From the NCBI RefSeq assembly GCF_011745625.1, contig NW_027191506.1, forward strand, positions 58,021 through 78,020: DNA of 20,000 bases, written 5' to 3'. Below, one piece after another: positions 116-20,000 of this stretch (its first letter is position 1; every line of letters starts with the position of its first letter). The stretch comes from Cladosporium halotolerans. Its lineage: Eukaryota. A program made the position numbers and the translations under genes. Below the pieces are notes generated by a model that saw nothing but the letters and a program-made list of their open reading frames with translations, did no database searches and had not been told where the DNA came from.

Positions 116-651
116 CCACGGGTCCCCGGTGAGACCGGGCCCTCCCCTACTTATACCGGTCCTCGGATAACCCCGTCGATCCTTCGATTTTTACCTCGAC
201 GGCTATCGTAGCTACGGGGCTCTACCTATTTTTACTATATACCGGATTACTTAGACTATAAGGGAAAAATAAAGTCCCCCTTCTAGAGCGGATTATAGAG
301 GCTAGAAAAATAAATAGGTCGAGGGAGCTAAGTATCCCGAGGCTAGATATTCCTTATATCTTAGCCGTCTTAATTTTCTTAGGCTATTCCTATTTTTTTA
401 CGGTAGTATAGGGTATATACTACTTATACCCTAAATATCTAAGCCGGAGAAAATCTAATACCTTTTAGAAAATTAGCCGAAGGATACTTAGGAGGCCTAG
501 GGTTAAAGTACCTATAATTCCTTAAGTATATATATTTAGAGGGTAACTCTTAATATAATAAGCTTAGGGAGGTAAACTCTACCTAGTATATAAGTATAGG
601 TATCCTAAGTCTCTTACTTTTAGATATAGTAAGATTAGGGTTAGGGTATAT

Positions 652-1122
652 TTAGTATAATACTTAGCTAATTTTATCTCGAGCCCTCGATTTTTTTAGA
701 GCTTAATTCTATTTTTCCTATATAGTCGAATACTAAAAGAGTCTAATAAAAATAAAAGCTAAATAGGAAAAAATCGGAGAGGCGAGATAAATTTCCGGTA
801 AAATATCCCTTATAATTTAAGGGCGGATATTAAGGTTATAGCTTTATCTAGATCGATCTTAGAGATAGATATATCTCAGAAATATAAGCTTAGGGTAGCC
901 CCGGTCCCCCTAGGGTAGTTTATAGATTTAAATATAAGGATATAATAATTATCTCTATTATACTCCGGTTAGAGGTAGGGTTAGTAAAGTATTTAGCTAA
1001 TTTTAACTCGAGACCTAGATTTTTTAGGGCTTAGCCCTATATATCCTATATAGTCCTATACGGATAGAATTTAGGAAAAATAACGGTTAAGTAAATAAAA
1101 ATCGGAGAGACGAGATAAAATT
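652..1122 (+). repeat. Two diverged ~140-bp direct repeats (652-793 and 981-1122), each preceded by TTAGGG-like sequence
   Basis: Shared blocks TTAGCTAATTTTA.CTCGAG, CCTATATAGTC and AAAAATCGGAGAG.CGAGATAAA at an offset of ~329. TTAGGGTTAGGG at 635-646 and TAGGGTTAG at 976-984. Confidence 0.8.
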
Positions 1123-1234
1123 CGATAGAGTTTTCTACCTTTTTTTTAAAGAAAGTATTATCTAACTATTACCTATATTTAGAAGATATATCCCGCTAAG
1201 TATTAAGAGATCTATAGGAATTATCTACTTTTCT

Positions 1235-4200
1235 TTAACCTTTCTTAGGCCTTCCTCTCTTATTAGTCTTTATCCTTTTAGGTCTTCCTCTTCCCTTCTT
1301 ACTAGGTTCTCTCTTCGGAGTATTTTCTTTTATATTTAAATTAATATTAATCTTCTCTTCTTCTTCTCTTTCTTTTTCTCTTTCTTCCTCTTCCTCTTCT
1401 CCTTCTTCTTCTTCTAAAGATAGACTATCTCGATTAATATAAGATCTTTTAGAGTTAATATTAGATCTAGCTATACTAGAATCTCTCTCTTTACGAGAAT
1501 TAGATATAGATCTATTATCTAAAGAGCTATAAAAAGCTAAAGGCGGAGTAGCTAGTTCTAAATTATCTAAACTTAAATCTATAGGATTATTATAAGTAGG
1601 AGATTCTAAATTAGTAGTATTAATAAAATCCTCTATTTCCTTATTTTTAGGAGGCGATTTAATATTATCTAAAGCTTTTAGATTAGTAGAATCTAATTTA
1701 TTAGTATATTTATTAGTATCTAAAGAATTAGAGCTAGAATCTATGATAATTCGCTTATCTAAATTAGGTATATTCCTTTTAGAAGATAGGTTCTTATTTA
1801 ATATATTAGAAGAGCTACTAGACGAGCTACTAGAAGAGCTACTAGTCGAACTTCTCTCTAAAATATCCTTATCCTTTATAGTAGTAGGAGCTATAGAATT
1901 AGCGTTAATATCTAAAGATTTAAAGCTAGAGCTAGAGCTAGAGCTAGAACTAGAACTAGAACTAGAGCTAGAGCTAGAGCTAGAACTAACCCTAGAATTA
2001 GATTTTAGTAGATCCTTAGGATTAAAATCCTCTATTATAGTATCTATAGTAATATCTTTATCTAAATTAAAATAATTAAAGTAAATTTTAGAATATTCTA
2101 ACGATCTAATAGTTATATCTCTAGTTTTATTACTAAAATAGTTCTCTTCTCTAGCGTAGTTTAGATTAGACGTTAAGCTAGATCTATTAGCTAATATATC
2201 CTCTATTCTATTAGGTTCTTTTCTTTTATTATTATTATTTTTAGTAGGACTTAGTAGGTTAAGATTATTATTAAGAATCTTTTCTTTAATTATATAAGTA
2301 ATTAAATACCGATAAGGCTTTAGGGTTAGACCTTTACTAAAGTATAGTTTAGTCTCTCTAAAAAGTAAAATACTTAATCTAGTAGAACTTATTAAAGTCT
2401 TATTATTTTTTAAAAAAAGCTTAGTTTCGATAGTTTTATAGTTTAGGTAAGTAAAGTTAAGATAGTCGATAAACGGTCTAAGGATAGTAATATAATATAT
2501 AACGACTCTAGTAAGTCGAGGAGGTAGATATCTGATATTTTTATTATCTAACTTAGTAAAATCTCGACTTTTACTATAGCTAGTATTAATAGCTATTAAG
2601 TTAGACTCTCTATTAAAAAAGATATTTCTAAATTTACTAATATTACTATTTTTATAATTTAGAATAATAATTTCTTCTCCTCTTAGAGGACTACTAGTTA
2701 ATAGATAGATATTTAATACTAGTAATTCTAGAAATCGATCTAGCTTTTTAAGATATTCCTTTATATTACTTAGGAGGTTATCTCCTCTATTAAGGAAGTT
2801 ATTAATAAGGGTATTAGGATCGAGAAAGCGCTCGATAAGTATATCTCTAAACCTACTTAGATAAGTAGTAGTAGATAGGTTATAGTAAGGAGTTCTATTA
2901 TCTATATTATCGTCTATTCTCGAATAGTCTATATCGATAGTATTATTATAAAGGCTATCGTTTTTAAAGAGAAGTAACTCTCTAAAGAGTAAACTCTCTA
3001 TATTAGTTAAGATATTATTAAATAGATTTTTTAGTCTAGGTATATAAATATTAATATTATCGATAGCGATCGTATTATTATCGATCTCTCTAATCGGTTT
3101 ATAAGAGCTAACTATTTTATAATTATAATATTTCAATTTATTCCTAATATAATATAGTTCGCTAAAATAGTTATTAGAATTAATACTTAGAAGATTTTCT
3201 AGAGTACTTTTAAAGAATAGAGTAGGATCTTCGATATAATCCTCTTTACTATAAATCTTATAATTTAAATATCCGAGAGTATATAATCTACTATTATATA
3301 TAATAGCCGAAATAGCTTTTTCTAAAGTATCTTATCTTTTAAAACTATTAGAAGTCCTTTCTAAACTTCTTATAATATAGAAAGTTAAGGTAGGATTATT
3401 AAAGTCTCTATTAGATAGAAGGTCGACTTCTAACTCTATAGAGAGAAGTTTATTAAAAAGTTTAAGAATAAGTATCCTTATATTATATAATTCTTTAGGA
3501 TTTAAGGTATTATCTTTACTATTAGTTAGGATTTCTTTATAATATTTTAGGTCCTCTATAATATTTAATATATCTTCGTTAATAATAGGCGTATTATAAA
3601 TATCTTTAGATTTAGTACTAATATTATAGATATAGACTAGTAGTAAGCTAAATTCTCTAAAGTAGGATCTTTTCGTTTCTTTCTCTAAAGCTTTAAAAGG
3701 TCTAATCTCTCTATTAGTAGAATTAGAATTAGTATTATTAATAAGTATTCTAGTACTTAGAGATAATAAATCTATATCTAAGGATATTTCGTCTCCTAAA
3801 GTAATAGTAAGATTATAGAGTATATTTAAAAAGGTATCTTTAGCTTCTAAATCTTTATAGATAAAATCGTTAAGGATAGATAGATCTTTTCCTTCTAAGT
3901 ATTTATAAAAATTAGTAGTTCTATTAAGGAAAGATCCTTCTTTATTAATATTAGTAATAGTATCTTCCTTATATATAGTAGAATTAGCTATAGTATTATA
4001 CTCTATATTGAAGTTATTAATTAGATCCTTAGAAGAAGGATTATTTAAATTAGATCTAAGTCTTAAGTTAGAGCTCCGATTAGAGCTATTACTATTAGTT
4101 ATATTAGTATTAATATTAGGTAGCTTAGGTATAAAGGTTATAGTCCTATTATATTTAAAACCTTTAATAATAGTAAGAGGGATATCTTCTAATATATTAG

Positions 4201-4758
4201 GATTCTTAATATTACTAATACTCTTAAGCTTATATTTATCGATTAAATATATAGATACTACTTTATAATTAATATTAGTAAAAGAATCTACTTTAGATTT
4301 ATACCCTTCTAAAGTTAGAGGTAGGTCTTTATAATAATATTTATTAAATTCTAATTTTTCTAGATCCTCTAAGGAATAAAATCCTTTATTAGTTATAAAA
4401 GGCTCTATAGTATTAAGAATTAGATTAGTAGATTTTATATTAGTTTTATTATTAGAAAGATAATCTTTAAGGTGATTTTTCTACGAAAATATTAGTAAAA
4501 GGACTTTTTAATAAATTAAAGAATAGATAAACTTACTTTTAGGTGGTTTTTTATAGTATTATAAGTAGGATTTATATATATTTTACACTTTCGGCAAATT
4601 ATTATCTTTATATCTTCTAAATATAATATAGGAGTATTAGGTAGACCTATAGTAGAGCTAGGTTTAATTTTATTAAAACTATCCTTAGTATAAGGCTTTA
4701 GATCTTCGAGAAGATTATTAAAATCTACGTTAAAATAATTCTTAATAAGGTTCGACAT
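1235..4758 (-). CDS. Copy B: spliced C2H2 zinc finger + tyrosine-recombinase-like protein with Ser-rich/acidic tail and two AT-hooks, no helicase; ~1155 codons; exon1 4758-4537, intron 4536-4481, exon2 4480-1235; one internal TAA at 3332-3334
   Basis: Manual translation joins the 80-aa and 633-aa ORFs. The intron has a GTAAGT donor, CTAAT branch and TAG acceptor (56 nt, phase 0), and splicing rebuilds CRKC...NHLKKNH. The protein is colinear with the 15291 ORF (ILEDIPLTIIKGFKYNRTITFIPKLP vs VLENIPLQVLEGFPNNKKICFIPRLP; IYNSRL; SPLRGEE; KGLTLKPYR; ANRSSLTSNLNY). It ends in GRGRPK and KRGRPKK. Confidence 0.8.
1925..1988 (-). repeat. Hexamer microsatellite (AGAGCT/AGAACT)n encoding a poly-Ser tract in copy B
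   Basis: Direct reading of the tandem hexamers, matching the Ser run in the translation. Confidence 0.9.
4481..4536 (-). other. Spliceosomal intron (56 nt) splitting the C2H2 zinc finger of copy B
   Basis: Minus strand GTAAGT...TACTAATATTTTCGTAG; removal keeps the frame and restores the second His ligand. Confidence 0.85.
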
Positions 4759-4910
4759 TTTTTAAAAGTAATAGATCTTTTAAAAAGATTTTTAATTTAG
4801 TAAAATCCGAGGGATAGTCGATAAAGTAATCGATAAAGTAATAATCGATAGAAAAGAAGAGGAAAGGGTAGAGAAAGGAAAAGCGAAAAAGAAGTCCTTA
4901 GATCTTCCCT

Positions 4911-5017
4911 ATCTACCCCTCTCTACCCTTCTCTACCCTTCTCTACCCTTCTCTACCCTTCTCTACCCCTCTCTACCTCTTTCTACCCCTCTTTTCCCCT
5001 CTCTACCCCTCTTTTCC
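4911..5017. repeat. Tandem 10-mer minisatellite (CTCTACCCYT)n upstream of copy B
   Basis: About 10 units with some degenerate 9-mers; the purine-rich stretch AAAGGGTAGAGAAAGG at ~4863-4878 is its reverse complement. Confidence 0.9.
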
Positions 5018-5212
5018 CGGTAGATATATCGGTAATAAGCCCGGCTTTATTAATAAAAGAAAAGGGAGCGGACGGAAGCGGAGCCTTAACCCTAACCCTT
5101 AGATAAAGACGAATATAATAATATAAATAGTCCGGATTTTAATAGTAATATAGAAGGATTAAGTCTAAGGGAGCCTTAATTATTACCTACTAATATATTC
5201 TCTTATCTTTAG

Positions 5213-5398
5213 AGATAATAGTAAGTACTTTCTCCTTTATAAAAAATAATAAAAAGGCTAGTTAAGATTACTAACTAAAGTTATAGATTTAGTTATAAGC
5301 TTTCTAGGAAAAGACGTTTATACTCTCGACTTTATTAAAGAGACTAGAGAGATCTATATTTCGAGTTCTTTAAGCTCGGAAAAAATTATCGATCTCCT
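5213..5398 (+). pseudogene. Fragment of a spliced gene divergent from copy B, product unknown; intron 5221-5286
   Basis: GTAAGT at 5221, perfect TACTAAC at 5269-5275 and TAG at 5284-5286, followed by an open frame LVISFLGKDVYTLDFIKETREIYISSSLSSEKIIDL cut at 5399. Confidence 0.4.
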
Positions 5399-5633
5399 TG
5401 TTACAGTGAAGTGAAGTCAGGACTCAGGTCACATGACTTGGTCACGTGACTCGGGTCGGGTCACGTGACTCGCGAAGCCACGCCTGGAGGGCGCTTGGCA
5501 GCTGCGTACGGCTCACCTGCGGAGCGTAGGGGACTCGTCCGCAAAGTAGCGATTAGTCTTGTACTGGGAGCAGTGATTGCTCAGCAGTGTCCTATACGTT
5601 GCGAGATTTATCTTTTTAGATAATCCTTTATCA
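5399..5633. mobile_element. Possible solo LTR or LTR fragment (not RIP-saturated)
   Basis: Starts TGTTACA and ends ...TTATCA; three GTCAC[A/G]TGAC palindromes at 5428-5470; GC-rich island with CpA/TpG inside CpA/TpG-free DNA; no clean TSD. Confidence 0.45.
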
Positions 5634-5641
5634 GTCTCCCC

Positions 5642-6733
5642 GATACGACTCTATTAAATAAAGTAGGAGATAATCTAATAGACTTAGACTACTTTAAAGA
5701 TCTTAAGAAAGTCCCGTACTTTCTAGATAGAATAATTACGCCGGGAACTCCGTATAATACTAAACTACTTAAAGGACTAAAAGATAATAAACTAATCTTT
5801 AAATCTAATAAAATAGAGAAGTATAATAGGGATATTAATCGATTTCTAGAGTACCTTACTCTAGCTATCCTATTATTTAGCGGAGGTCCTTTAAGAGCTC
5901 CCGAGCTAACTACTATAATATATAAGAATATAGAGTCGAAGAATCGCTCGCTACTTTATAATAAAGATAATAACCTATTTACTATAACTACGGACTACTA
6001 TAAAAGTAAAAATATTACTAGAAAAGAAAACTTAAATATTAGATATATACCGCCTATACTTAGTAAGATATTACTCGTTTATATTATATATATTATTCCG
6101 TTTAAGGAAAATATACTAAAAGAATACTATAACCTAGAAGATTATAATACTCCGTACTTACTAGTAAAGGATAATAAGCTACTAACTAGCTATAATATAA
6201 CTACTATACTTAAAAAAGAATCTAGCCTCTATTTTAATAAAGGATTAACTCTCTATAGTTATAGAAAAATAATAAACTATATAATTAAAACTAAATTTAA
6301 TAATAAAGACTACTTTAGTAGTTCGGATACTAATATAAGCGATAATATAGAAGATCGGCAAGCTAATAGATCTACTAAAACTAGCTTTAACTATTACTTT
6401 AATACCGGATCCTATTTTAGTAATTTAAATAATATCTATAACCTAAATAAAATTAAGGAATTTAGTATTCTATACTTTAATTATTTTAATCTTTTAAAGT
6501 CCCGGGATATATCTAATAGTCGAGATATTAGTAAGGCTATAATAGATACTAGTATAGAAGATACTCCTAATTATAATAGTAGTAGTAATAATAACCTAGA
6601 ATTTACTATAAATACTAAGGATTTAGAGAGTAATATTAGGCTACTTTATAAGAATAATAAGCTAGGGTTTAAAAGTAAAGAGCAAAAAGACGGATTAATT
6701 AATATTACTAATAATATACCTATTATAACCTAC
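5642..6733 (+). pseudogene. Copy C: internal fragment (364 stop-free codons) of a YR-helicase gene, spanning the recombinase domain to just before helicase motif I; truncated at both ends
   Basis: Absent from the ORF track because it has no start codon. It translates DTTLLNKVG...FSGGPLRAPELTTIIYKN...TDYYKSKNITRKE...KGLTLYSYRKIINYIIKTK...EDRQANRSTKTSFNYYFN...FKSKEQK...PIITY, closely colinear with the 15291 ORF. Confidence 0.9.
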
Positions 6734-7177
6734 CATTAGAGGACGAAAAACTCGAGTCGAGTTGTTTGAATTCTCACGTAAATGAACCCTTAGGGTTGGA
6801 AGTAGGGAGTCGAGTTCTTTGCTTTATCTGAGACGTGTTTTTCGCTTTTACGATACTTAAAATGCCCAAATTTGCAGCTGGGCATTGCGATAAGAATCAG
6901 CTCACCGCACGCTCGATCGCAGCCGAATATTCGGAACGATGGTGCGGCAATGGTGTGCTGCCATCTATTGCAGATAGACGAGTTTGGGGTTCAGGTAGGG
7001 ATTCTTCCCCACAATACAGTGCCCTAGGCACTTACAGCCGACTCCTTCCACGCCACTTTAATGACAGACGCGAGACAATACTGCACATAGCTGCATTAGG
7101 AAGCGCCGATACCGATTATAACAAGAGCAGACTCTGTACCATATTGGAAGAATGCATATCTCATAGTTGGAGGAGTG

Positions 7178-10100
7178 ATGGACGATTTTCGACGTATCTT
7201 TGAAATTGACTCTCGCCACCGCATTTTGATCTGCCTACCTTGTCAATACGCTGTAATACCTTCACATACCAAGACGCATCTCCAGACCCACCACAAGCGC
7301 CTCAGTATTGAACAGCGAAACGATTTTGTCTCGAGAGTCGAAGGATGCACAGAGCTCGCCAAGATACATGCTGATGTTGTTTATCCATTGCCAACTGAGC
7401 CTCCGATTCCTAGCATCCCAGTGTATTTCGATGGCCTGAGATGCGACGGCACCGATATACAAGGCGACAGATGCCAATACATATGTCGTACTATATACAG
7501 AATGCAAGAGCACTGTAAGCGGGAACATCAATGGGTGAACCGACAAACACGCGGAGGTGACTCGCGAGCGAAACGAAGCCACACACAAAACAAGAGGTGG
7601 ACGGAACACCATGCATGCCAACGGCTATTCAAAGTTTCTACTTGGCAGAAATATTTCGAAGTCGCCCGTCAAAACATTGGGAGTGGCAGTCAGAGTCGAG
7701 CAGAAGTAAGGCACGACTTCTTCCGCACTCAGGAAAACGATGTGCGACAAGCAGAGCATGACGCCACCGAAGATGCTAATCGAGTCCACGGCTTCGACGA
7801 CCATGTCTCCGCCGTAGTCCCTTGGCTTAGAGAGACGGGCATCGCGGATCATATCAACCATCTCAAAAAAGACGAAATCCGAACAGCGATAACGGTTCCT
7901 CCGCCAGGGGGTGAGAGTGATCTCCGGGTAATAATCGACGCGATGGAGTCACTGCTACGAGATGCCCACAGGCTATGTTTCGACGGGCCGGACTGCATGC
8001 TGACTTATCAATGTCGAGTCGTCCTCAGCCGCTTCCAGCCGTCGCAAGTCGACCTGACAGGCAAGACCAGACCGTTCGATCCGTACAAAGGACCGAAGAG
8101 TCTTACGGCATACTTTGGAATAGCGCTTCGATTCGTGTCATATTTCGCTAGGGTTGTAGCTCCTGATGAGTACCACTTTAGTCCAGCAGCAAATACCGAC
8201 AATGATAGCGAAGGACAGAGGCCGGAGGATATTATCGGGGCAACAGATGAGCAGTTGGCGGCATGGCGAGACATCCACCAGATGACACAGCGGAGGCGCA
8301 CAGAACGGACCGAGGATGACAACAACGACAATAGCGACAACGATGAAGAGGACGCCGAAAGGGACAGTGAAATGAAGAAACGGCTTCTGGAGCTGTGGCT
8401 GCTTCTCATCTGCCACACCACCGGCGCTCGGCGATACCAGTCGCCTCTACTGAGCTTTTGTGCCATGCTCAGCATCAAGCCGTCGACGCGGAGTTGGATG
8501 GAGCCTGGCAACTTCAACAGCAGCCTCTCCGCCATGATATGGGTCGTACAATTGCTAGTGTTCTACGACAGCGCCGTAAAGGAACAGCAGGGATGTGGGG
8601 AGACGCTGAAACTGGTGAAAGCCTACTGCGACCAATATCTTCAACAGACCGTGGAGACACCTATGGGAGAGATACTCAGATGGCGCTTGTTATTATTCAA
8701 GGTGTCGGGCGCGACCGTTGGCACCCATGAAGCTTCTTGGGACGAAAGTGAAGAGGTACTCACATACGGGGACACCGAATTACGGATGGACCACATCCCG
8801 TCCCTGCTTGCGTCTGAGTACCGGGGGTGTTGCCAGCTCCTTTACGACGATCTGATGCTGGGTCTCACGAGTCTTCGCCGAATGAGTCCTCGGCTCCTCA
8901 AAGACGGTGTCAACGTCGATACCGTGAGTTGGAACTTCGTCCAACACAGAGACAACGCGACGATCCTCGATGGCACAGAACGAGCATTGATAAAAGCAAT
9001 GGAACGATCTGAGCAATTATGTCGAATCTTTCTTGTTGAGAATAGTCAGTCGCCCGGTGGATTGGCATGGAGGGAGAGCGCAATGGCCAGTTACGAAGCT
9101 ACCGTGCAGGAGTTTCTGAAACGGCTCAGCGTCCTCATACACATCAGTGGCGGGCAACCTGTACGGGAGAGCGAGTTCTTTTCGATGACATATCGCAACA
9201 CGCAGCGGCGACGGTCTATCATCATCCGCTTCGAGCGTGTGATGGTACACGTGCAGTACCACAAAGGCCAGCAGCAGACGGGAAGCTACAAAGAAAATGT
9301 CCGCTTCCTCGCCAACCCTATCGGAGAATTGCTGCTCGACTACATCACTTACGTCCTGCCGTTACGTGAGAGGTTTCTACGGCAGACCTCACCTGGATCG
9401 TTACTTTCCCCGTACCTTTGGGAGAAGGATGGAAAAGTGTGGCCGGAAGGCCATCTAAGTCGGTACTTGGAGGAAGCAAGTGTTCGGGCGTGCGTGCCGC
9501 GGCTTCACGTCGCCAACTGGAGGCAGATCACGGTGGCCATCGTAAAGACCAAGTTTGCTAGCCAGATCGAATGTTTCGATCCCGACGAAGGCGACGAAGA
9601 CGCAGAAGAGATCGATGCAACGATCAGGAGTATGACCGAACAGCGTAATCACAAAACACGGACAGTGAACCGGGCATACGCCAACCAGGCCGGGGCAGTT
9701 TTTGCCAATTTGTGGGATGGGAAAGTCCGGACGGGACTACAGGCTTCGACGCTGTGGCAGGATTTCTGGGGCGTAGGAATGATCCTCAAGCAAAAGAAAC
9801 GTGGGAAATTGGAGCAAGAATCTCGCTTGGCGAAACGGGTCGCTATGGGCATCTACCGTCCTCGGAAGCCTTGGTCGACCGAAGCTCTCCTTGGAGGGGT
9901 GAGGAAGCTGTATGGCAATAAAGAAGCAGGCTGGAAATCCGTCGAGCAGGAGCAAGCTCTCGCGACGATAATGTCGTGGACCGAGCAGGTAGTCGCCATC
10001 CTTCCCACGGGAGCTGGGAAGAGCTTGCTCTTTATGCTTCCATGCACTCTACCCGACGCCGGGGTAACAATACTCATCGTACCGCTCGTTGCACTTCACG

Positions 10101-11681
10101 GAGACATGCTTCGGCGTGTGCGCGAGATGAAAATTGATCACCTCGAGTGGCAGCCAGGCGAAAGTCGAGAAGCAGCACTGGTACTAGTCAGCGCCGAGGC
10201 CGTTTCGTCGAAGGACTTTATGAAGTATGCTCGTAGGCTGATAGCAGAGCAGAAGCTCGATCGGATCGTGGTCGACGAGTGCCACCTGACTGTGACTGCG
10301 GCCGAATATAGGCCCAGCATTATCGAGCTCACAGCGATCAGGAGCCTGAGAACTCAGTTCGTCTACCTTACAGCCACCCTCCCGCCATCTATGAGGGCGG
10401 AATTCGAGGAGAGGAACTATCTGCACCACCCTACAGTGGTCAGGGCACCCAGCAATCGACCGAACATCTTCTATATGGTGCGTAGGATCGACGCTCACTT
10501 GGGAAGCCTTCTCAAGCAGGCTGCAACCGAGGCCAAAGAGGCATGGATGGAGTCGGGTTTCTTCGACCACGCCTACGACAAGATCATACTGTACGTTAGG
10601 ACGTGCAAAGATGCAGACGATCTGGCAGAGCTACTCGGCTGTGATGCGTACACGGCAGAGAGTGGGACACCGGCAGAGAAGAAAGAGATACTCGATCGAT
10701 GGGTTCGGACTCCGGACACGCCTTACATCGTCGCCACCACCGCTCTTGCCGAAGGGTTCGACTATCCACACGTCCGGCTCATCATGAACGTGGACGAGCC
10801 GGAGTCGTTGGTCATCTTTGCCCAAGAGTCCGGTCGGGCGGGACGGGACGGGAAACGTGCATATTCGATGGTATTACTTCCCGCAACCTGGCAGCCTCAG
10901 GTCTCAGATGTTCCGTTGGATGAGCCGCGCGGGACGAACAACTACAGAGATGACCCGACACTTCGGAAGCGCCACGATAAGGAAGCAGCGCATCGATACC
11001 TACTGGGCAAGCAATGCTACCGGACGTCCCTGAGTGACTACTTGGACGTCGCTCGCCATCGAAGATGGTGCATGCCCGAAGATGGTGCATGCCCGAAGAT
11101 GTGCCTTGCGACATTTGCAAGGTGGCGCATCAGGGCATGATCGAACCCGTGGATAAAGTCGAACAGGACGACACACAGGGCTTCAGCTCATCCAGCAAGA
11201 AAAGCTTCGGGCCCACACAGAACTAGCGCAGTATCGTCTGGACCTAGCGAGTGTGAAGGGAACGTGCTTGCTCTGCAGGACAGCCAGACACGACTGGAAC
11301 CATGATTTCTCGACTTGCCCACGGCGTTTCGACATCTTTGAAGAAAGGAACAAAGCCAGGCGGCGGCACGAAGAACGAGGGCGGAAATGGCTACAGGCAT
11401 ACTCAAGCTGCTTCTGGTGTCTGAATCCGCAATCGATCTGTCAACAAGCGGAGCTGGGAAGCAGGGGTGGTAGAGGTTGCGAATACAGAGACATTGTACT
11501 CCCGCTCTGCTTCGGAGTTTTCGGGAGCGTTGAAGGGCCAGGGTGGCTTTACGAGCAGTTCGAGCGGAAGTTCAAGAACGTGGAGGATTACTTTGACTGG
11601 CTAGGAGAGGAAAGTAGATTTGGAGGAGGAAGCGCGATACAAGCAGTGCGAGTAGCAGGGCTAGCTCTACGGTCAGTGTAA
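7178..11681 (+). CDS. TLH-like protein: C2H2/DUF3505-like N-terminus + tyrosine-recombinase-like domain + RecQ-type helicase + Cys-rich C-terminus; 3' end broken by two frameshifts (main ORF ends 11140, C-terminal part continues in the 11253-11681 frame)
   Basis: ICLPC...HLQTHH; GGQPVRESE, YHK, HVANWRQ, QRNHKTRTVNRAY; LPTGAGKS, DECH, TAT, QESGRAGRDG; CYR...WC...CDIC; CLLC, CFWC. ATG at 7178. Confidence 0.9.
11060..11101 (+). repeat. 17-bp tandem duplication CGAAGATGGTGCATGCC causing a frameshift
   Basis: Units at 11060-11076 and 11077-11093 followed by CGAAGATG; removing one unit gives WCMPEDVPCDIC. Confidence 0.9.
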
Positions 11682-11735
11682 GGATCCTAATTATGTTTTC
11701 GTACGTTGAGAAGTAGGAGACTAAACCCTAACCTC

Positions 11736-12776
11736 TTGGAAGTGAAATAGATAAAAAATGAAATTAAAGGTTAAATGAAAAATGAAATAGGAAGTAGGAG
11801 AAAGAATAGAATTAGATAAAGTAGATATTAGGTTTAGAATTAGGAAATATATATAAGATAAAATAGGAATAAAGTTTTTTTTTTTTTTGATTTAAGGAAA
11901 AGAAAAGAAGAGGGAAAAAGGGATAAAGGAGAATATTTTAAAGAAAAAAAAAAGTAAGAAAAATAGAAGGGAGTTAGGGTTAGAAGTAGAGTAGATTAGG
12001 AAGAGATTAAAAGGTTTATTATAGTAAAGAAATGATTAGAAGTTAAAGGGTAAATTAAAGAATAGTAGTAAATTAATGTTAGTAAGATTAAAAGTGTTAA
12101 ATAAAAATTAAAAAGATAAAGGAGAGAAAATTAATAAGAATAGAAAATTAGTAGGATTTAAAATAAATAAGAAGAAAATTAAGGAATAAAGATAGAAGAA
12201 TAAAAGATAAATTAAGAGGAGTATTATAAGTAAGATAATAATAAAAAAAGAGTAATAAAGAATAGAAGGATTTTAGAGTTTAGGGTTATAAAGAATTAGA
12301 AGTAAAGAGGTTTTTTTTTTTTTTTTTTTTTTGAAAAAAGAAAGAAGAAAAAGGGAAAAAAAAAAGAGAAAAGATTAAGAAGGTAAAAAAAAAAAAAAAG
12401 AGAAAAGATTAAAAAGGGAAAAAAAAAAAAAAAAAAAAAGAGAAAAGATTAAAAAGGGAAAAAAAAAAAAAAAAAAAGGAAAGTTAAGGATAAAGAGAGA
12501 GATAAGTAGAAAGAATAAGAAGAGAGAAAAGAGAGAAAGGTTAGGATAAGGAGAAAAGAAGAAAAGAAGAATAAAAGAGAAAGAAGGATGTTTAAGAGGA
12601 TTATAGAGGATAAGAATAAAGATAAGTAGTAGAAATAAGTGAAGGTAAAGGAGATAGAATATAGTATAGATATAAAATAGAAAGGATAGGAATAAATAGA
12701 TGATTATAGTATAAGATAGATAAAAGAAGAAGAAGAGAAGAGAAGGAGAGAAGGAGTAGGATTAGGATTAGGATGA
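11736..12776 (+). repeat. Cytosine-free A/G/T low-complexity tract with poly-T and poly-A runs, GAGAAAAGATTAA units and TTAGGG/TTAGGA motifs
   Basis: No C seen between the C at 11735 and the C at 12777. Confidence 0.9.
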
Positions 12777-12780
12777 CTCT

Positions 12781-14241
12781 CATTCTACGAAGAAATCACG
12801 GTGGTTTTTTTGAAACGTAGGCGAAATTTGAGGTGGGTCCGGCTTATCGAGACGGTGGTTTTTTTGAAACTTCGACGGTGGTTTCTTTGAGCATCTGATG
12901 TCGTAAAATCACGAGATAAAAGCAGAAGATACATTCTTGCATCGCAATACTAGAAATGTATTTAGATACGATAAACAGCGTTTTCTTAGTGTTGCATGTA
13001 TGAGGTCTTCTGAAGGGTTAGGGCATCGCGACGCGGGGCTGTGTAACAGAACACGCTGGCGTCGCAAATATAATGTCGGCGTTGACAGAAGAAGAAAGCA
13101 AGATTCTTTCTTGGGAGGGAAGGGCTAGGGAATAATTGCGATGCGGCGCGTAAATATATAGGCATCGCCCGTCGAGTTCAAGAAAGCGTTAGGGTTTACA
13201 CGAATTATTCTTTTCACAGCATCAGAAGTTGACACAAGAAATCTGGAGCAAAAATGGGTCGCGCTGGATGTGACTTTGACAGCATTCTTCAACACAGACA
13301 ACGATACAAGATCATCATATGCAAGCCGTGTGCTTTCGCTGTCGTACCGGAACAAATCGATCGTCACTTGCGTGAGCATCACCCGCAGGTCGGCAAGGAA
13401 AAGCGTAGCCGGATTGCGGCGATTGGGGTAGCGCTAGAGGAAGTAGCACACAGCAAAGAGGAGGTCGTATACCCGCAAGCGAACGAAGGACCGATTGAAG
13501 GGCTCGCGGTATACAAGGACGGGCTGCTGTGTATGGGACAGCGAGACGGAAAGGCTTGTGAATATGTCTGCCGAACGATTTCTGGAATGCAGAAACACTG
13601 CCGATCGGAACACGGCTGGGTGAACGAGAGAGGACGTGGAGGAAATGTGCGAAAGAAGGGGTTACAAGCGTTGAATCGAATGTGGGAAGACAAGCAGAGG
13701 TGTCAGCGATTTTTCGAGTACCGGCAGTGGCAACGATACTTTGCCGTATCACGAGAGGAATCGATCGGAGAAGACGGAGAGGGGGACGAAGCAAGGGAGG
13801 AAACGATCGATGGCGAGTCACAATTGCGAGAAGTGTTACGAGAGAGCCGAGCAAAGGTGTCTGACGCACGGCAGCGGCAGGCCGTCGACGGCAGCTTCAA
13901 ACGATACGTTGCAGACCCGTGGCTCGAATTCACAGGGTGGCACAGACACTTGCAAGGCTTTCAGTGGGACGATCTACTGCGGTTCGTCGAGCCGACGGCT
14001 AGAGAACAATTGCAGAAGCAGGGAAAGCGCGGGAAAAAGGCGGTCCGCATGCCGGAAGAGGATGAAGGAGAGGAAGAGCTAACGAGAGCTTGCAGAGGGA
14101 CGAGGAAGGTAGTACGAGAGGCATTCGAGGCGTGCAGACCGGGGACGACAGGCAGAGCGATATTAGAGTACGTCAACAGAAAGGAAGCGGCGGGGGATCA
14201 GCCGAGCATGAAGGCGTTCGATGGCAGCCGGAAGCCGAGAT
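12781..14241 (+). mobile_element. Copy E: 5' part of another family member (leader plus truncated gene)
   Basis: Sharp start after the C-free tract; three ACGGTGGTTTYTTTGA repeats; AGGGTTAGGG at 13014-13023; ORF homologous to the copy D N-terminus. Confidence 0.65.
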
Positions 14242-14288
14242 CTAACATTACCCCAGCTGGTGAAACCTGGTTACACCAGCAGTTTTGA
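13254..14288 (+). pseudogene. 3'-truncated TLH-like gene (DUF3505-like N-terminal ~330 aa); the last 14 residues are read-through into the copy F leader
   Basis: ICKPCAFAV...HLREHH, CEYVCRT...MQKHCRSEHGW, CQRFF...WQRYFAV and PWLEFTGW match copy D; ends NITPAGETWLHQQF, identical to the end of ORF 14463-15116. Confidence 0.85.
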
Positions 14289-14342
14289 ACCCGGTTACAC
14301 CAGCAAGGCTTTAGGGTTAGGGTTGTTGCTGGTGTAACCAGG
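14256..14342. promoter_or_regulatory. Four copies of GGTTACACCAGC (reverse, forward, forward, reverse) with TTAGGGTTAGGGTT between the last pair; putative recombinase or telomere-protein binding site (repeated at 15084-15170)
   Basis: Copies at 14256-14267 (reverse, 1 mismatch), 14269-14280, 14293-14304 and 14328-14339 (reverse); telomere repeat at 14311-14324. Confidence 0.6.
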
Positions 14343-14471
14343 ACAGCTACTGACAGGGGTAAGAAATTTCCATATTGTAAGCATTGTCCAACTTATGAAA
14401 AATTGTAGGTATTGCAGATTGAAATCCAATCGCAAAAACCTGTCGTTTAGGGTCGAAGCGAATTGGTAAGC

Positions 14472-15116
14472 ATGGAGTCGGACAACTTGGCTGCGACTTA
14501 CGCTTTCAACGATCTGCTGCGTTCCACTAGCAAGCTTTGCAGCCTGTCTTTCTACCAAAAACACATCCCATGCGCACCGGTGCAAGTAGTCAATGACTCC
14601 AGCATATGCTACAGTCAAGATCTCAAGCTCCTCTTGTGTACTACTTGCAGCAAAGTTCAGAGCCGAGATACGACGATCCGGCATCTAAAGCAGAGGCACC
14701 GCACCGAGTACAGCCGATTAAAGAAGGCCTTGAAATCGATTCAAGACGAAATCAGCCGTTTACCTATCAACGCTGCGGAAGCAATCAGCATCAGCCATAA
14801 TAAATATTACTTCTCTTGCTTGCCCATCACCTTCGACAACTTCAAGTGTAGAGAGTGTGCTTATGTCGACATCAATCGAAAGAACGTCCGAAACCACTTC
14901 CAGTCGCACCATTCTTGTCATATCAAGAGTACTAAGAGTACGAACCAGAGGGCAGACTACGTACTCGAAAACATTCCTCTTCAGGTCCTAGAAGGGTTCC
15001 CTAACAACAAGAAAATTTGCTTCATTCCCAGGCTACCAGTTCTCCAAACCGATACACCATCCACCCAGCCTAACATTACCCCAGCTGGTGAAACCTGGTT
15101 ACACCAGCAGTTTTGA
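14472..15116 (+). pseudogene. Truncated first copy of the copy F gene (two zinc fingers only)
   Basis: Identical to the first ~200 aa of the 15300 ORF, then reads into the second leader. Confidence 0.9.
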
Positions 15117-15299
15117 ACCCGGTTACACCAGCAAGGCTTTAGGGTTAGGGTTGTTGCTGGTGTAACCAGGACAGCTACTGACAGGGGTAAGAAATTTCCA
15201 TATTGTAAGCATTGTCCAACTTATGAAAAATTGTAGGTATTGCAGATTGAAATCCAATCGCAAAAACCTGTCGTTTAGGGTCGAAGCGAATTGGTAAGC

Positions 15300-18200
15300 A
15301 TGGAGTCGGACAACTTGGCTGCGACTTACGCTTTCAACGATCTGCTGCGTTCCACTAGCAAGCTTTGCAGCCTGTCTTTCTACCAAAAACACATCCCATG
15401 CGCACCGGTGCAAGTAGTCAATGACTCCAGCATATGCTACAGTCAAGATCTCAAGCTCCTCTTGTGTACTACTTGCAGCAAAGTTCAGAGCCGAGATACG
15501 ACGATCCGGCATCTAAAGCAGAGGCACCGCACCGAGTACAGCCGATTAAAGAAGGCCTTGAAATCGATTCAAGACGAAATCAGCCGTTTACCTATCAACG
15601 CTGCGGAAGCAATCAGCATCAGCCATAATAAATATTACTTCTCTTGCTTGCCCATCACCTTCGACAACTTCAAGTGTAGAGAGTGTGCTTATGTCGACAT
15701 CAATCGAAAGAACGTCCGAAACCACTTCCAGTCGCACCATTCTTGTCATATCAAGAGTACTAAGAGTACGAACCAGAGGGCAGACTACGTACTCGAAAAC
15801 ATTCCTCTTCAGGTCCTAGAAGGGTTCCCTAACAACAAGAAAATTTGCTTCATTCCCAGGCTACCAGTTCTCCAAACCGATACACCATCCACCCAGCCTG
15901 AAGTCGCAACACCCCAGCCTGGCAACAGTCGCCCACACTTCCTTGCCGAAGATGTTCGAACAGCGATCCTTAACGCACATGAAAAGAGCATCGAAGAGAG
16001 GGAGTGTGAACAGTCGTACAACGATGCAGCCTCTAACAACAAGAAATTACTCAATAGCTTCCTCACTAACTCCAACCTTCTCGACTTCCTCCAGGAGAAG
16101 GACAGAGACATCCTTGTCGATCTCATCAGCACACCCACTAGCACTAATCTCAAGCTCGAGAAAGATCTCGACCTCGAGCTGCTCGAGGCAAACATCCTTA
16201 GCTTCATGCTCGAGGCGCACAAGCACATCCCCCACCTCACGAGAAGATTGCGGCAGTTGCTGAGAACGGAAGACGTCTCGAAATCGTACAAGGAAATGAA
16301 AGACTTTATCCAGTTAACAAGGCCCGAACCGCACTTCAAGAAATACTGTCGACTGGCAACGTTCATAATCCGAGTCCATCTCATCCAGGAGAACTACAAG
16401 GAGGCGTCTTCTGATACGATCAAGAGTAAATACTTCGATGCCACCGAGCATATCCATCTCAGCGAGGAGACTAGAACGTTCATAAAGCGGCTCATGGACC
16501 TTGGAATCAAGCCGATCCAGGACGATACCGATCAGGAATATACCCCAGCTTTACGCAGCATCGTCGCTCGACTTTTCCACTCCCTGTTGAAGGATCAGAT
16601 CCACTTGAAGGTCAAAGAGAACAACACGTTCAGGAACTCGGTTGTCTTTTTTTACTTCTGTAACATCTTACACCCGCAGACAAAAGAGGTCCTCGACAGC
16701 CCCATGGTCAGCAAAATTGCCAGCATCTTCATCTACAACAGCCGGCTGATGTTCCTCGCCTACTACTACGCCGTTGAAGATAAACACGTGCTTAACGAAC
16801 ACGATATGAATCGAATGTACGAGAAAGAAGTTCGCAAATATCTCAGCAACGATTCGAAGAATTATTTCGAGGAACTCACGCAGATCCGGGCCTTCAGTTT
16901 GAAGCTCGCCAAACAGCACAAGTCGACGACTTATACCATCAAAGAGAGCCCGGCGGGCACAGTAGAGTTCAACGGCGTGCCATATCCTATCGAACACATC
17001 AAGAACTTCTTCATGCGGTTGGGCGTTCAATTGGAAGGGCAACTCAAGAGTAAGCTGCTGTTCGTCAATCACCTGGACACGCTCGGGATCGATTTCAGCC
17101 GGATCGAAGATACGCCGCTACTCAACAAGACTGGCCAGAGCATTGTCGATACCCCGCAACTCGAGCGATTCAAGTCATGGTTCCTCCAGGAGCTCGTCAA
17201 GGGGGACAGCGAGCACAATCGATTCTTCGTCAAAGACGTGCGGGGCGGTCGAATCCGATTTAAACAATCGAGCGTTCAGCGCTTCCTTGCGGATCTCAAC
17301 ACTTTCACGGAGCTCCTCGCCAATGCCATCAACCTGTACAGTGGTGGCCCTCTCCGAGGCACGGAGCTAAATCTGATCCTCTACAAGAACACTAGCATAA
17401 AGGATAGGAGCATGTTGTACAACAAGGATGCGGGGATGTTCTTTGTGAAGACCGATTACAACAAGACCAATAATATCACGCGCAAGGAAAGGGTCAGCTA
17501 CCGCTACCTCACACCGGTGCTCAGTAGGATCGTCATCATCTACGTGGCAGCCGTCTTGCCGCTAAGGGACTACATCTATCGCCAACACTATCGCGACGAG
17601 CAATACGACAATCCGTACCTGCTAGGCAGAAACCAAGGGGCCGTCAGCTCGTACTCGATCAGCATTCGCTTGCAGAAGGAGACGTCCACCTCTTTCCGCA
17701 AAGGACTGAGTCTACAGGCGTGGAGGAAGATAATCAACTTCATCATCAAGACCAAGATGCACGCATCCCCGCTCGATCCCGACGATAGTAGTGACAGCAG
17801 CGACGACGAAGACCTCGTGGAAGACAAGCAGGCCAACAGAACCACCCAAGTCAGCTTCAACCACTATTTCAACTCGGAATTCTTCGTGAACAGCACCGTC
17901 ACCCCAAAAGATCTAAGCGCACTTCGAGAGTTCAGCATCCGGTACTTCAATTACTTCAACCTGCTGGACGACTTGCAGCCCACGGATCAGAAGTACAGCC
18001 GTATCACCATGAGCACTGATCCAGGGCCGGTCGAGATGGTCACGCTCGATAACAGAGGCGTGCTGCAGCGCCTAAGGAGGCTGTACGGCGACCCGAACGC
18101 CAACTTCTTCAACAACGAACAGAGAAAGTGCGTTAGTCAAGTGCTCTCGGGTCGACCGTACATCACATACATCAACCGAACGGGCTCGGGCAAGTCGTTG

Positions 18201-19961
18201 GTGTACTTGCTGCCGGCGTTCATCAAGCGGAACCACCTGCACGTCATCATCACCCCCCGACTCGCCCTAAAGGACGATCTCTACGGAAAAGCATGTGAGC
18301 TCAAACTCCGTCCGAGTCGGTTCGAGGACGCGGTAACATACGACAGCAACCTGATTTTCTGCTCGGTGGAAGACCTCGACTCGCAAGGGCTGAAGCAAAT
18401 CATCGGCAGGCACAAGACGCTTGGAAGGGAGGTCACCATTATGCTCGACGAGGCGCACCTGTTCTTGATCGAGGCAACGTTCCGAGTCCAGCTTCGCAAC
18501 CTCATCACCATTCTGCAGTACAAAGCCGACGTGGTGTTCATCACCGCCACTCTCCCGCGGCCGCTCCTGCAGCTCCTCAACACGACGTTCGGCATCGCCA
18601 ACTTCAACAGCATCATCCGGGGTAGCAGCAACCGAAGCGACATCAGTTATCGAAGGGTGTACTACAGCGCCAAGGGAGACCGAGACGAGGTCGTTCGCGA
18701 GACGATCCGGGATATCGAGCGGGGAGACGACGACGTCCGAAACAAGGTCCTGATTTTCGTCACGAACAAGAAGCAGGGAGAGGATCTCGCGGAACTGTTG
18801 GGAACGGACACCGTCTACTCCGGCAAAAAAGACCTTCAACGGATCCTGCGCGAATTCCTCGAGAGCAAAACGCAAAGGTCACTGGTAACGACATCGGTCC
18901 TCGAGGTGGGGATCGATATCAAACAGATCAAGTACACGATCAGCGTCGAGCCGATCCATAGCTTGACTAGCGTCGTGCAATCCAGTGGACGGATCCGTCA
19001 GCGAGGGGTCAGCTACATCGTCTGCCAGCAGCCGAGCAAGAACAGTCGGAATCGGATCCAGCGGGATGCAAACGTGCGGCGAGAGGTTCGGGACATTGAC
19101 GATTTCAAGGAATTGGACCGGTCGTGGTACGGATTGCTGACTGTGGAAGAAGGCTGCCTCCGGACACCAATCAGCCAATTCTTAGACCACGTGCCGTATC
19201 GGTGTCAGGGCCATAGGGACGATCTCTGCTCGCTTTGCGTGGAGAACGAGCGGGTGAAGGAAGAGGGGCGGAAGAGGGAGGAAGGTGTAATGATGGAGAG
19301 ACGAAGCCGCTGGTTGGATCTGGAGGAGAAGCTGCTGCAGCTCAAGGAAATGTACTGCATGTACTGTGTGCTGGATCCGTACAACACCAGCAACAGCATC
19401 AACCACGCGGGGACAGAATGCCGAGCGATGCAGGGGGACAAGAAAATGAAGCTTGTACGTGGGCAGGTGGAAGGTGAGCTCCGACAGCAAAGGTTACCAC
19501 CGCACGAGTGCGGATGCATTCAGTGCCTGATACCGAAGAACATATGCTTGAAACAACAGGAGAACAACGGACTGGGGGAGGGAGAATGTTTGATGGGGCG
19601 ATTCCTGGTGGAAACGATGGCGGTGCTATTCCGTTTCCAAGAGCGGACGGAAGGGGCGATCGCCGGCCTACCAAAGCGGACGGAAGACTTGGGGGAGTTC
19701 GTGAAGAGGTTGATGGCGGCTCGGGGGTGGTTTACACTTAAAACAGTGCGATTAGTGGAGGTACTAGGAGGGTTGGATATAGTAGGGATGATAGAAGCGA
19801 TTGAAACCAAAGAAGAAGGGGAAGAAGGGGAGGAGGGACAGGTAGAGGAGAGGGCTTGGGTAGGACGGGGACGAAAGAGGCGGGCGAGCACGATGGGCAA
19901 GCCTAACCAAAAAGCAGCGGAGGGGAACACTTATCCCCAGCTAACCCCAAGTCGGCGCTAA
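15300..19961 (+). CDS. Copy F: uninterrupted ~1553-aa C2H2 + tyrosine-recombinase-like + RecQ-like helicase + Cys-rich protein (TLH-like)
   Basis: CTTC...HLKQRH, CREC...HFQSHH; SGGPLRGTEL, YNK, LQAWRK, QANRTTQVSFNHY; RTGSGKS, DEAH, TAT, TSVLEVGIDI, QSSGRIR; CLR...C...CSLC, CMYC, CIQC. First ATG at 15300. Confidence 0.92.
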   Translation: MESDNLAATYAFNDLLRSTSKLCSLSFYQKHIPCAPVQVVNDSSICYSQDLKLLLCTTCSKVQSRDTTIRHLKQRHRTEYSRLKKALKSIQDEISRLPINAAEAISISHNKYYFSCLPITFDNFKCRECAYVDINRKNVRNHFQSHHSCHIKSTKSTNQRADYVLENIPLQVLEGFPNNKKICFIPRLPVLQTDTPSTQPEVATPQPGNSRPHFLAEDVRTAILNAHEKSIEERECEQSYNDAASNNKKLLNSFLTNSNLLDFLQEKDRDILVDLISTPTSTNLKLEKDLDLELLEANILSFMLEAHKHIPHLTRRLRQLLRTEDVSKSYKEMKDFIQLTRPEPHFKKYCRLATFIIRVHLIQENYKEASSDTIKSKYFDATEHIHLSEETRTFIKRLMDLGIKPIQDDTDQEYTPALRSIVARLFHSLLKDQIHLKVKENNTFRNSVVFFYFCNILHPQTKEVLDSPMVSKIASIFIYNSRLMFLAYYYAVEDKHVLNEHDMNRMYEKEVRKYLSNDSKNYFEELTQIRAFSLKLAKQHKSTTYTIKESPAGTVEFNGVPYPIEHIKNFFMRLGVQLEGQLKSKLLFVNHLDTLGIDFSRIEDTPLLNKTGQSIVDTPQLERFKSWFLQELVKGDSEHNRFFVKDVRGGRIRFKQSSVQRFLADLNTFTELLANAINLYSGGPLRGTELNLILYKNTSIKDRSMLYNKDAGMFFVKTDYNKTNNITRKERVSYRYLTPVLSRIVIIYVAAVLPLRDYIYRQHYRDEQYDNPYLLGRNQGAVSSYSISIRLQKETSTSFRKGLSLQAWRKIINFIIKTKMHASPLDPDDSSDSSDDEDLVEDKQANRTTQVSFNHYFNSEFFVNSTVTPKDLSALREFSIRYFNYFNLLDDLQPTDQKYSRITMSTDPGPVEMVTLDNRGVLQRLRRLYGDPNANFFNNEQRKCVSQVLSGRPYITYINRTGSGKSLVYLLPAFIKRNHLHVIITPRLALKDDLYGKACELKLRPSRFEDAVTYDSNLIFCSVEDLDSQGLKQIIGRHKTLGREVTIMLDEAHLFLIEATFRVQLRNLITILQYKADVVFITATLPRPLLQLLNTTFGIANFNSIIRGSSNRSDISYRRVYYSAKGDRDEVVRETIRDIERGDDDVRNKVLIFVTNKKQGEDLAELLGTDTVYSGKKDLQRILREFLESKTQRSLVTTSVLEVGIDIKQIKYTISVEPIHSLTSVVQSSGRIRQRGVSYIVCQQPSKNSRNRIQRDANVRREVRDIDDFKELDRSWYGLLTVEEGCLRTPISQFLDHVPYRCQGHRDDLCSLCVENERVKEEGRKREEGVMMERRSRWLDLEEKLLQLKEMYCMYCVLDPYNTSNSINHAGTECRAMQGDKKMKLVRGQVEGELRQQRLPPHECGCIQCLIPKNICLKQQENNGLGEGECLMGRFLVETMAVLFRFQERTEGAIAGLPKRTEDLGEFVKRLMAARGWFTLKTVRLVEVLGGLDIVGMIEAIETKEEGEEGEEGQVEERAWVGRGRKRRASTMGKPNQKAAEGNTYPQLTPSRR

Positions 19962-20000
19962 CGGCAAGCGGCTACTGGATTTCCGTTTTGAGTAGCATTG

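Follow-up and report, generated by a model that had tools for sequence, protein, structure and literature searches.

A kilobase-long cytosine-free tract at the 3' end of a telomere-linked helicase gene, a probable relic of a fungal chromosome end

Here, we describe a 1041-nt tract of A, G and T (11736..12776, + strand) that contains no cytosine and follows a telomere-linked RecQ-like helicase (TLH) gene, within a 20-kb window that is the whole stretch of DNA analysed. The tract is real, and tracts of the same kind recur 3' of related helicase genes, always with the same polarity; two of them run into telomeric repeats, two have almost the base composition of the tract described here, and two share its proximal boundary. 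The tract is probably the telomere-adjacent, G-strand-polarised distal spacer of a TLH subtelomeric unit, present in this window as a relic chromosome end.

In yeasts, a strand bias of telomere-adjacent DNA is already on record. The bias described here is absolute for one base over a kilobase and comes with one composition and no conserved sequence, beside genes that differ by about 25%. This combination separates two ideas that are usually confounded, namely that telomere-like sequence is inherited and that some strand-specific process goes on acting at chromosome ends. The fungi concerned are common and culturable, and the question is testable.

The tract and its setting in the window

The run from 11736 to 12776 is the longest cytosine-free run in the window and consists of 579 A (55.6%), 237 G (22.8%) and 225 T (21.6%), base counts that bear out the original prediction of a 1041-nt + strand stretch without C. 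The second-longest such run spans only 59 nt, and the longest runs lacking one of the other bases measure 117 nt for G, 65 nt for A and 48 nt for T. A chance origin is ruled out because the neighbouring AT-rich DNA contains about 11-13% C. GC skew is +1.0 over the whole tract, and purines make up 78% of its + strand. G and some TpG persist, as had also been claimed, the latter as 14 remaining dinucleotides at an odds ratio of 0.27. No Rfam family matches the tract, and no meaningful ORF was found in it; the ORFs there encode low-complexity sequence and lie on a strand whose sole type of stop is TAA.

Sequencing data from several independent studies support the stretch indirectly. From positions 11300-13300, a span of which the tract makes up 52%, we sampled 196 words and looked them up in a 31-mer index. 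Three sequencing runs from three studies (X1, X2 and X3) hold fractions of 0.92, 0.91 and 0.90 of these 31-mers. At least half of the sampled 31-mers are present in eight sequencing runs, one of which may be the window's own source, and parts of the span occur in 20 index rows from 15 studies, among them metagenomes of air, dust and plastic. No RNA data set is among the runs listed.

The tract starts 54 nt past the stop codon of the TLH gene, which we call copy D (7100..11681, + strand). The helicase frame ends at 11681 and the last C stands at 11735, in keeping with the predicted location at the 3' end of this copy. Copy D comprises an ORF at 7100-11140 and another, in a different frame, at 11157-11681, with an intron or frameshift between 11140 and 11157; the 174 codons downstream of the frame change still fit the family's C-terminal consensus. 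The gene carries Pfam OrsD, DEAD and Helicase_C domains, and PF00270, PF00271 and PF12013 were found both in 7100-11140 and in 15279-19961. Relatives of the copy D protein share 99-86% identity with it and include proteins named for Cladosporium fusiforme, with other Dothideomycetes also among the closest named; more distant relatives are labelled tlh1 or telomere-associated recQ-like helicase. Based on these domains and named relatives, we assign the locus to a TLH subtelomere of a Cladosporium-like fungus.

The window holds four members of the helicase family. Directly downstream of the tract lies a second, divergent TLH-type element (12777..20000, + strand), with an OrsD ORF at 13233-14288 and an ORF at 15279-19961, whose protein shares only 24% amino-acid identity with copy D. 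Upstream of copy D lie AT-rich family members of about 22% GC (1235-4480, - strand; 5624-6739, + strand), and the region 200-6740 has CpA and TpG odds of 0.02, a saturated signature of the type left by repeat-induced point mutation (RIP). The GC-normal elements on either side of the tract are without this signature (CpA odds 1.09-1.14). The AT-rich copies nevertheless retain reading frames that stay open for 698, 382 and 371 codons, and their proteins are 24-30% identical to those of the GC-normal copies. The second element also contains a perfect (100%) 830-bp tandem duplication (14242-15071 and 15070-15899), which covers an OrsD-type region including the ORF 14451-15116 and the start of the ORF 15279-19961.

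Related tracts, their polarity and their telomeric neighbours

A profile of the helicase C-terminus identified 18 loci in metagenome contigs, the helicase lying on the + strand in all of them, and in 11 of the 18 the 3' flank is 2.3 kb or longer. Four of these 11 well-flanked loci have a tract that lacks C or is poor in it, on the helicase-sense (+) strand in every case and continuing up to the contig end: 1292 nt with 0 C in L002, 1168 nt with 0 C in L003 (L002 and L003 come from the same metagenome), about 1300 nt in two blocks with 2% C in L011, and 436 nt without C inside a larger block of 1.3% C in L013. The idea that other copies end in C-free tails of the same orientation thus finds direct backing in these four loci, and the tract, recurring 3' of related helicase genes, is neither unique to this locus nor detached from the 3' ends of elements. 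This recurrence and common orientation identify it as a recurrent, G-strand-polarised feature that lies between a TLH gene and a telomere.

Two of these relatives run into telomeric repeats. The L011 contig terminates in (TTAGGG)11, and in L013 A-rich, C-poor DNA passes into variant repeats (TTAAGGG, TAGGG, TTGAGGG and TTAAGAGGAGGG) and then into TTAGGG at the contig end. Terminal (TTAGGG)n is thus found at contig ends in L011 and L013, whereas the window itself holds relic seeds only; across loci, tracts of 1.0-1.3 kb adjoin a telomere in these two relatives and a degenerate seed in the window. One of the two readings first offered for the tract, that of a telomere-G-strand-like tail, is supported by these loci. 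The L007 contig breaks off 46 nt inside a tract that has the boundary seen in the window, those of L006 and L008 break off in purine-rich DNA with little C, and that of L016 within a G-rich ORF. Since short-read contigs break in the tracts, these mark chromosome ends in draft and metagenome assemblies. As a counterpoint, L004, L014 and L018 have no tract despite 5-8 kb of 3' flank. No G-free counterpart was found on the helicase strand among the loci, save in L010, whose left end lacks G over 188 nt; this end was considered as a mirror-image tract and rejected as plain A/T-only DNA.

The tracts share composition rather than sequence. Their A/G/T fractions are.556/.228/.216 in the window,.564/.227/.209 in L002 and.562/.212/.226 in L003, and TpG is depleted across tracts (odds 0.06-0.36). 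No colinear alignment exists between these three: BLAST returns many equally good off-diagonal matches at 60-67% identity, which therefore reflect compositional likeness and not colinear homology, and 12-mers common to the tracts are only slightly above Markov-2 expectation. The adjoining helicase genes of L001-L003 are 74-76% identical in DNA, and the L007 protein is 65% identical. Such equal composition in tracts that cannot be aligned would fit an equilibrium.

A faint hexameric pattern also links the tracts. T positions are autocorrelated at lag 6 in four of six tract segments, with z = 5.2, 4.3, 3.9 and 6.9 in the window, L002, L003 and L013, respectively, although the signal is weak (r = 0.11-0.34). 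In the same four tracts, the fit to TTAGGG with G>A tolerated lies slightly above Markov-2 expectation (z = 2.1, 4.1, 1.8 and 4.1). Neither the lag-6 autocorrelation nor the TTAGGG fit gives a hexamer signal in L011b.

The proximal boundary is conserved in sequence. In the window it consists of CTAAACCCTAACC, a C-strand-type telomere motif, followed by TAACCTCTT-GGAAGTGAAAT (11721..11749, + strand). TAACCTCTT together with 12-mers of the RGAAGTGAAAT type occurs once each in the window (11729), L003 (5723) and L007 (3736), always at the tract start and on the + strand. The boundary TAACCTCTT is preceded by telomere-type motifs, which in L007 form the palindrome GGTTAGGGTTAG/ACCCTAACC, and the boundary 12-mer family also closes L003, just ahead of ...GATAGGGTT at the contig end.

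The loci differ in what else accompanies the tract. L003 (5081-5659), L007 (3035-3697) and L016 (2496-3626) have a small, strongly G/A-rich ORF between helicase and tract, with a GC skew of 0.3-0.6; in L002 this place is taken by a different small gene that appears to contain introns, and the window has no small gene there. In L013, a TTAGGG seed (5288) is separated from the C-poor tract by a degenerate tandem array of about 40-nt AACTACTAACTACTTAGGTTTTAAGAAGGAT-like units (5290-6460). L008 carries two helicase ORFs in tandem, and its contig end (9610-9689) consists of about eight copies of the 8-mer CCCGCTAA in C-rich orientation, following a C-poor stretch with several TTAGGG-like islands, an arrangement that does not fit a simple order of gene, tract and telomere.

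Internal structure, origin and upkeep of the cytosine-free state

Within the window tract, telomere-like sequence is found at a few discrete places. Two TTAGGGTTA islands (11974..11982 and 12280..12288, + strand) begin exactly where the original prediction had placed them and are enriched over simulation: against the 2 observed, the expected number is 0.023, and not one of 2000 second-order Markov simulations produced as many as 2. The TTAGGA repeats predicted at the tract's end are present as well, in the form of a degenerate telomere seed in G-strand orientation, a 6-nt array of 3.8 copies of AGGATT (TTAGGA) at 12752..12774 (+ strand). TAGGAT occurs five times against 0.8 expected and TTAGGG twice against 0.6-0.7 expected; no tandem TTAGGG array was found in the window tract, only the two islands and the 3.8 TTAGGA units. 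We also considered and rejected two further ideas about its makeup. One was that the tract is throughout a decayed array of the 12-mer GAAGTGAAATGG, but this 12-mer accounts for only 3-8% of sliding windows in the tracts of the window and of L003, where it is confined to the edges, and is absent elsewhere. The other was that the tract is extra rich in telomerase-primable 3' ends: 3' ends in telomerase-template register with a match of at least 4 nt make up a fraction of 0.056 in the tract and 0.047 in the RIP-mutated flank.

The tract had been described as non-periodic, a description that holds in part. The spacing of T has a weak though significant period of 5-7 nt (r = 0.17 at lag 6, with z = 5.2 relative to Markov-2), and there are a few clear tandem arrays, such as that at 12356..12477 (+ strand), about three copies of a ~40-nt unit (GAGAAAAGATTAAAAAGGG plus an A run) that we read as recent. 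The TRF score of this array is 161-186, whereas the best row from Markov-2 shuffles scores 75 +/- 21, and the TRF excess of the tract over shuffles is modest (z ~1-4). T stands singly 93 times against 35 TT, with a dinucleotide bias of 1.79 for TT. The remaining k-mer statistics are near those of a Markov-2 random three-letter sequence, in agreement with the description.

We propose that in terminal copies the low-complexity spacer sits between the helicase gene and (TTAGGG)n, its A/G/T strand running 5' to 3' towards the chromosome end. In the window, a short telomere seed, now reduced to 3.8 units of TTAGGA, would have been capped by the second TLH-type element in the same orientation. Such a capping event onto a former chromosome end would resemble the stacking of yeast Y' elements on internal telomere tracts, and a stacking context is seen in the tandem helicase ORFs of L008 and in telomere-type motifs near other element borders of the window. 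The window would then record the growth of a chromosome end, with helicase elements stacked on old telomere seeds.

The tract itself may have been assembled from short C-free units, telomere-like hexamers and a family of 12-mers related to GGRAGRTGAAAT, and would turn over by slippage and unequal exchange, with G lost to A or T. It would stay free of C because its seeds lack C and because changes that create C on the + strand are very rare or quickly removed. An origin from telomere-like repeats has counterpoints, since most of the tract looks Markov-2 random and L011b is without the hexamer signal. Simple G>A decay of (TTAGGG)n fails to give the tract, because its T is mostly single and stands at 22% rather than 33%, and because the period is weak. 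Moreover, TTAGGG/CCCTAA, read directly, contains neither CpA nor TpG, so that strict CpA-type RIP cannot act on it, and the A-richness is left without a demonstrated cause.

How the absence of C is upheld is a separate matter from how the tract arose. The count of C is zero in 3501 nt over three lineages (window, L002 and L003) whose flanking DNA is about 25% diverged. With a generic eukaryotic mutation spectrum, roughly one in four substitutions at A, G and T sites would create C. In nine of 16 tandem arrays, on which these tallies rest, copies within an array differ by A/G 26 times, A/T 23 times, G/T 12 times and A/C once (in L011 only), so ordinary substitutions, transversions included, do occur in the tracts. 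Since substitutions occur and no C is left, either renewal would outpace mutation or C would be removed or selected against. Zero C over this length and divergence needs an extra exclusion process, which is a point against the proposal. One tentative and rather unlikely reading is that chromosome ends of these fungi carry an actively maintained three-letter (A/G/T) buffer, in which a strand-specific process at the end strips every new cytosine from more than 1 kb of essentially non-repetitive DNA. Candidates for such a process include recurrent exposure of the 3'-ending strand with removal of C, and selection on an A/G/U transcript or on the G-free C strand. If this were true, the tract would not be a passive fossil but would stand at an equilibrium set by mutation or selection (A.56, G.22, T.22), and it would act as a zone, sacrificial or held in reserve, that separates telomere and helicase gene.

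Another explanation, compatible with the spacer reading and in itself unlikely, holds that the tract is a selected functional element from which C is excluded as its A/G/U transcript or G-free complement serves a telomere function, for example as a back-up telomerase seed, a recombination substrate or a boundary. The near-constant composition across unalignable tracts, the conserved boundary motif with its telomere-type sites and the absence of C-creating changes despite about 25% flank divergence all favour such a role. However, the density of telomerase-register 3' ends no greater than that of RIP flank DNA, the lack of an Rfam match and the lack of a sensible ORF argue against it.

The original prediction had proposed that the strand is persistently single-stranded and deaminated during helicase-driven displacement. 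More broadly, ordinary DNA whose 3'-ending strand is repeatedly exposed by end resection, R-loops or helicase unwinding could have had all its C converted to T. The polarity is that of the strand that resection would expose, the tracts lie at or near chromosome ends, and something must exclude C from C-free tracts whose array copies vary among A, G and T without yielding it. Nevertheless, we consider deamination quite unlikely as the tract's origin. It predicts about 45% T, but T makes up only 21.6% of the tract and 20% of the un-mutated flank, with A at 56% in the tract and the strand mostly purine; this lack of T enrichment is at odds with ordinary DNA in which deamination has turned every C into T. 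The hexamer periodicity, too, would not be expected of converted complex DNA.

Alignment and substitution counts bear on the same point. Converted alignment (C>T/G>A, C>A/G>A and plain, both strands) of the tract against the rest of the window and the 18 loci, with five shuffles as controls, found no source sequence, the best scores lying no more than 11 above the maximum of the shuffles. We also scored polarised singleton changes in a helicase alignment of window positions 7175-11681 with L001-L003 and L006. On the coding strand C>T and G>A are balanced, at 27 versus 27 in the last 900 nt and 118 versus 103 over the whole gene, so the part of the prediction that ascribes the tract's origin to deamination is unsupported. 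A>G outnumbers T>C by 73 to 34 overall and by 21 to 5 in the last 900 nt, next to the tract, counts that are confounded by codon selection; the shortage of T>C there is a point in favour of deamination. As upkeep of a C-free state that arose otherwise, strand-specific removal of newly arising C may take part.

Two further explanations are very unlikely. The tract could be an extreme RIP relic of a duplicated sequence: like RIP-mutated DNA of filamentous ascomycetes, it is AT-rich and TpG-depleted, and it lies near DNA with a genuine, saturated RIP-type signature. Unlike such DNA, it is one-sided, with 23% G and 0% C, and converted alignment revealed no duplicated source; RIP acts on both strands and spares C outside CpA, and the tract lies between two elements that RIP has not marked. 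Because the saturated flanks keep 13% C and the tract keeps 23% G, RIP alone fails, as had been argued from the one-sided loss of C. Similarly, a template-independent or low-fidelity end synthesis, terminal-transferase-like and seldom inserting C, would account for random-like k-mers and equal composition in independent tracts, but not for the dinucleotide biases (TG 0.07-0.36, TT 1.79), the 6-nt period of T or the conserved boundary with its 12-mer array. Finally, an assembly or base-calling artefact is extremely improbable: low-complexity DNA is error-prone, but a fraction of 0.90 or more of the sampled 31-mers is present in each of three runs from different studies, others hold them in part, and equivalent tracts stand on four metagenome contigs, two of which share one metagenome.

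Relation to known telomere-adjacent DNA and to other features of the window

The closest known case would seem to be the R element of Kluyveromyces lactis. Nickles and McEachern reportedly described, in 2004, this distal subtelomeric element as kilobase-scale DNA beside telomere repeats with a strong purine/pyrimidine strand bias. Judged from that description, the tract is like the R element in its kilobase scale, its direct adjacency to the telomere and its purine-biased strand. In contrast to the R element, the tract and its two closest counterparts in composition lack one base altogether (0 C in 1041, 1292 and 1168 nt), while T makes up 22%; the host is a filamentous Dothideomycete-type fungus, and the tract is attached to an OrsD-RecQ TLH gene, unconserved in sequence between loci and internal in the window.

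RecQ-like TLH elements are known from several fungi, including Magnaporthe TLH, Ustilago UTASa, S. pombe tlh1 and the telomeric RecQ genes of Zymoseptoria, the last with low-GC copies of 34.7% GC (PMC4522978), and the Y' elements of S. cerevisiae, which also carry helicases, share a strand bias (PMC3698924). As in yeast Y' and fungal TLH elements, the RecQ-like helicases described here occur in several copies, form tandem stacks with short telomere-like tracts inside them and in two relatives lie near terminal telomere repeats, and, as in Zymoseptoria, low-GC helicase copies are present in the window. The excerpted account of fungal TLH elements in PMC4522978 describes no C-free spacer between helicase and telomere, and no description of a cytosine-free subtelomeric tract was found in the literature searched.

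Outside fungi, telomere-associated sequences that evolve from simple telomeric repeats are known in Chironomus (Nielsen & Edstrom 1993, in PMC3698924), and HeT-A/TART arrays have a G/C strand bias (PMC3698924). Like both, the tract is complex subterminal DNA in which the strand polarity typical of telomeric repeats is preserved; unlike these regular long tandem units or retrotransposons, it is largely non-repetitive three-letter DNA.

Other parts of the window contain smaller features of related kind. Telomere-type motifs (GGGTTAGGG and TTAGGGTT) occur at 636-650, 975-985, 6786-6793 and 13014-13022, near element borders or in 5' regions, and are candidates for binding sites or for relics of seeds. 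At 4902-5018 the 10-mer CCCTTCTCTA forms an array of 117 nt without G, which is C-free and G-rich on the opposite strand and lies beside CCTTAACCCTAACCC (5085-5100); this array may correspond, on a small scale and in inverted orientation, to the polarised tract.
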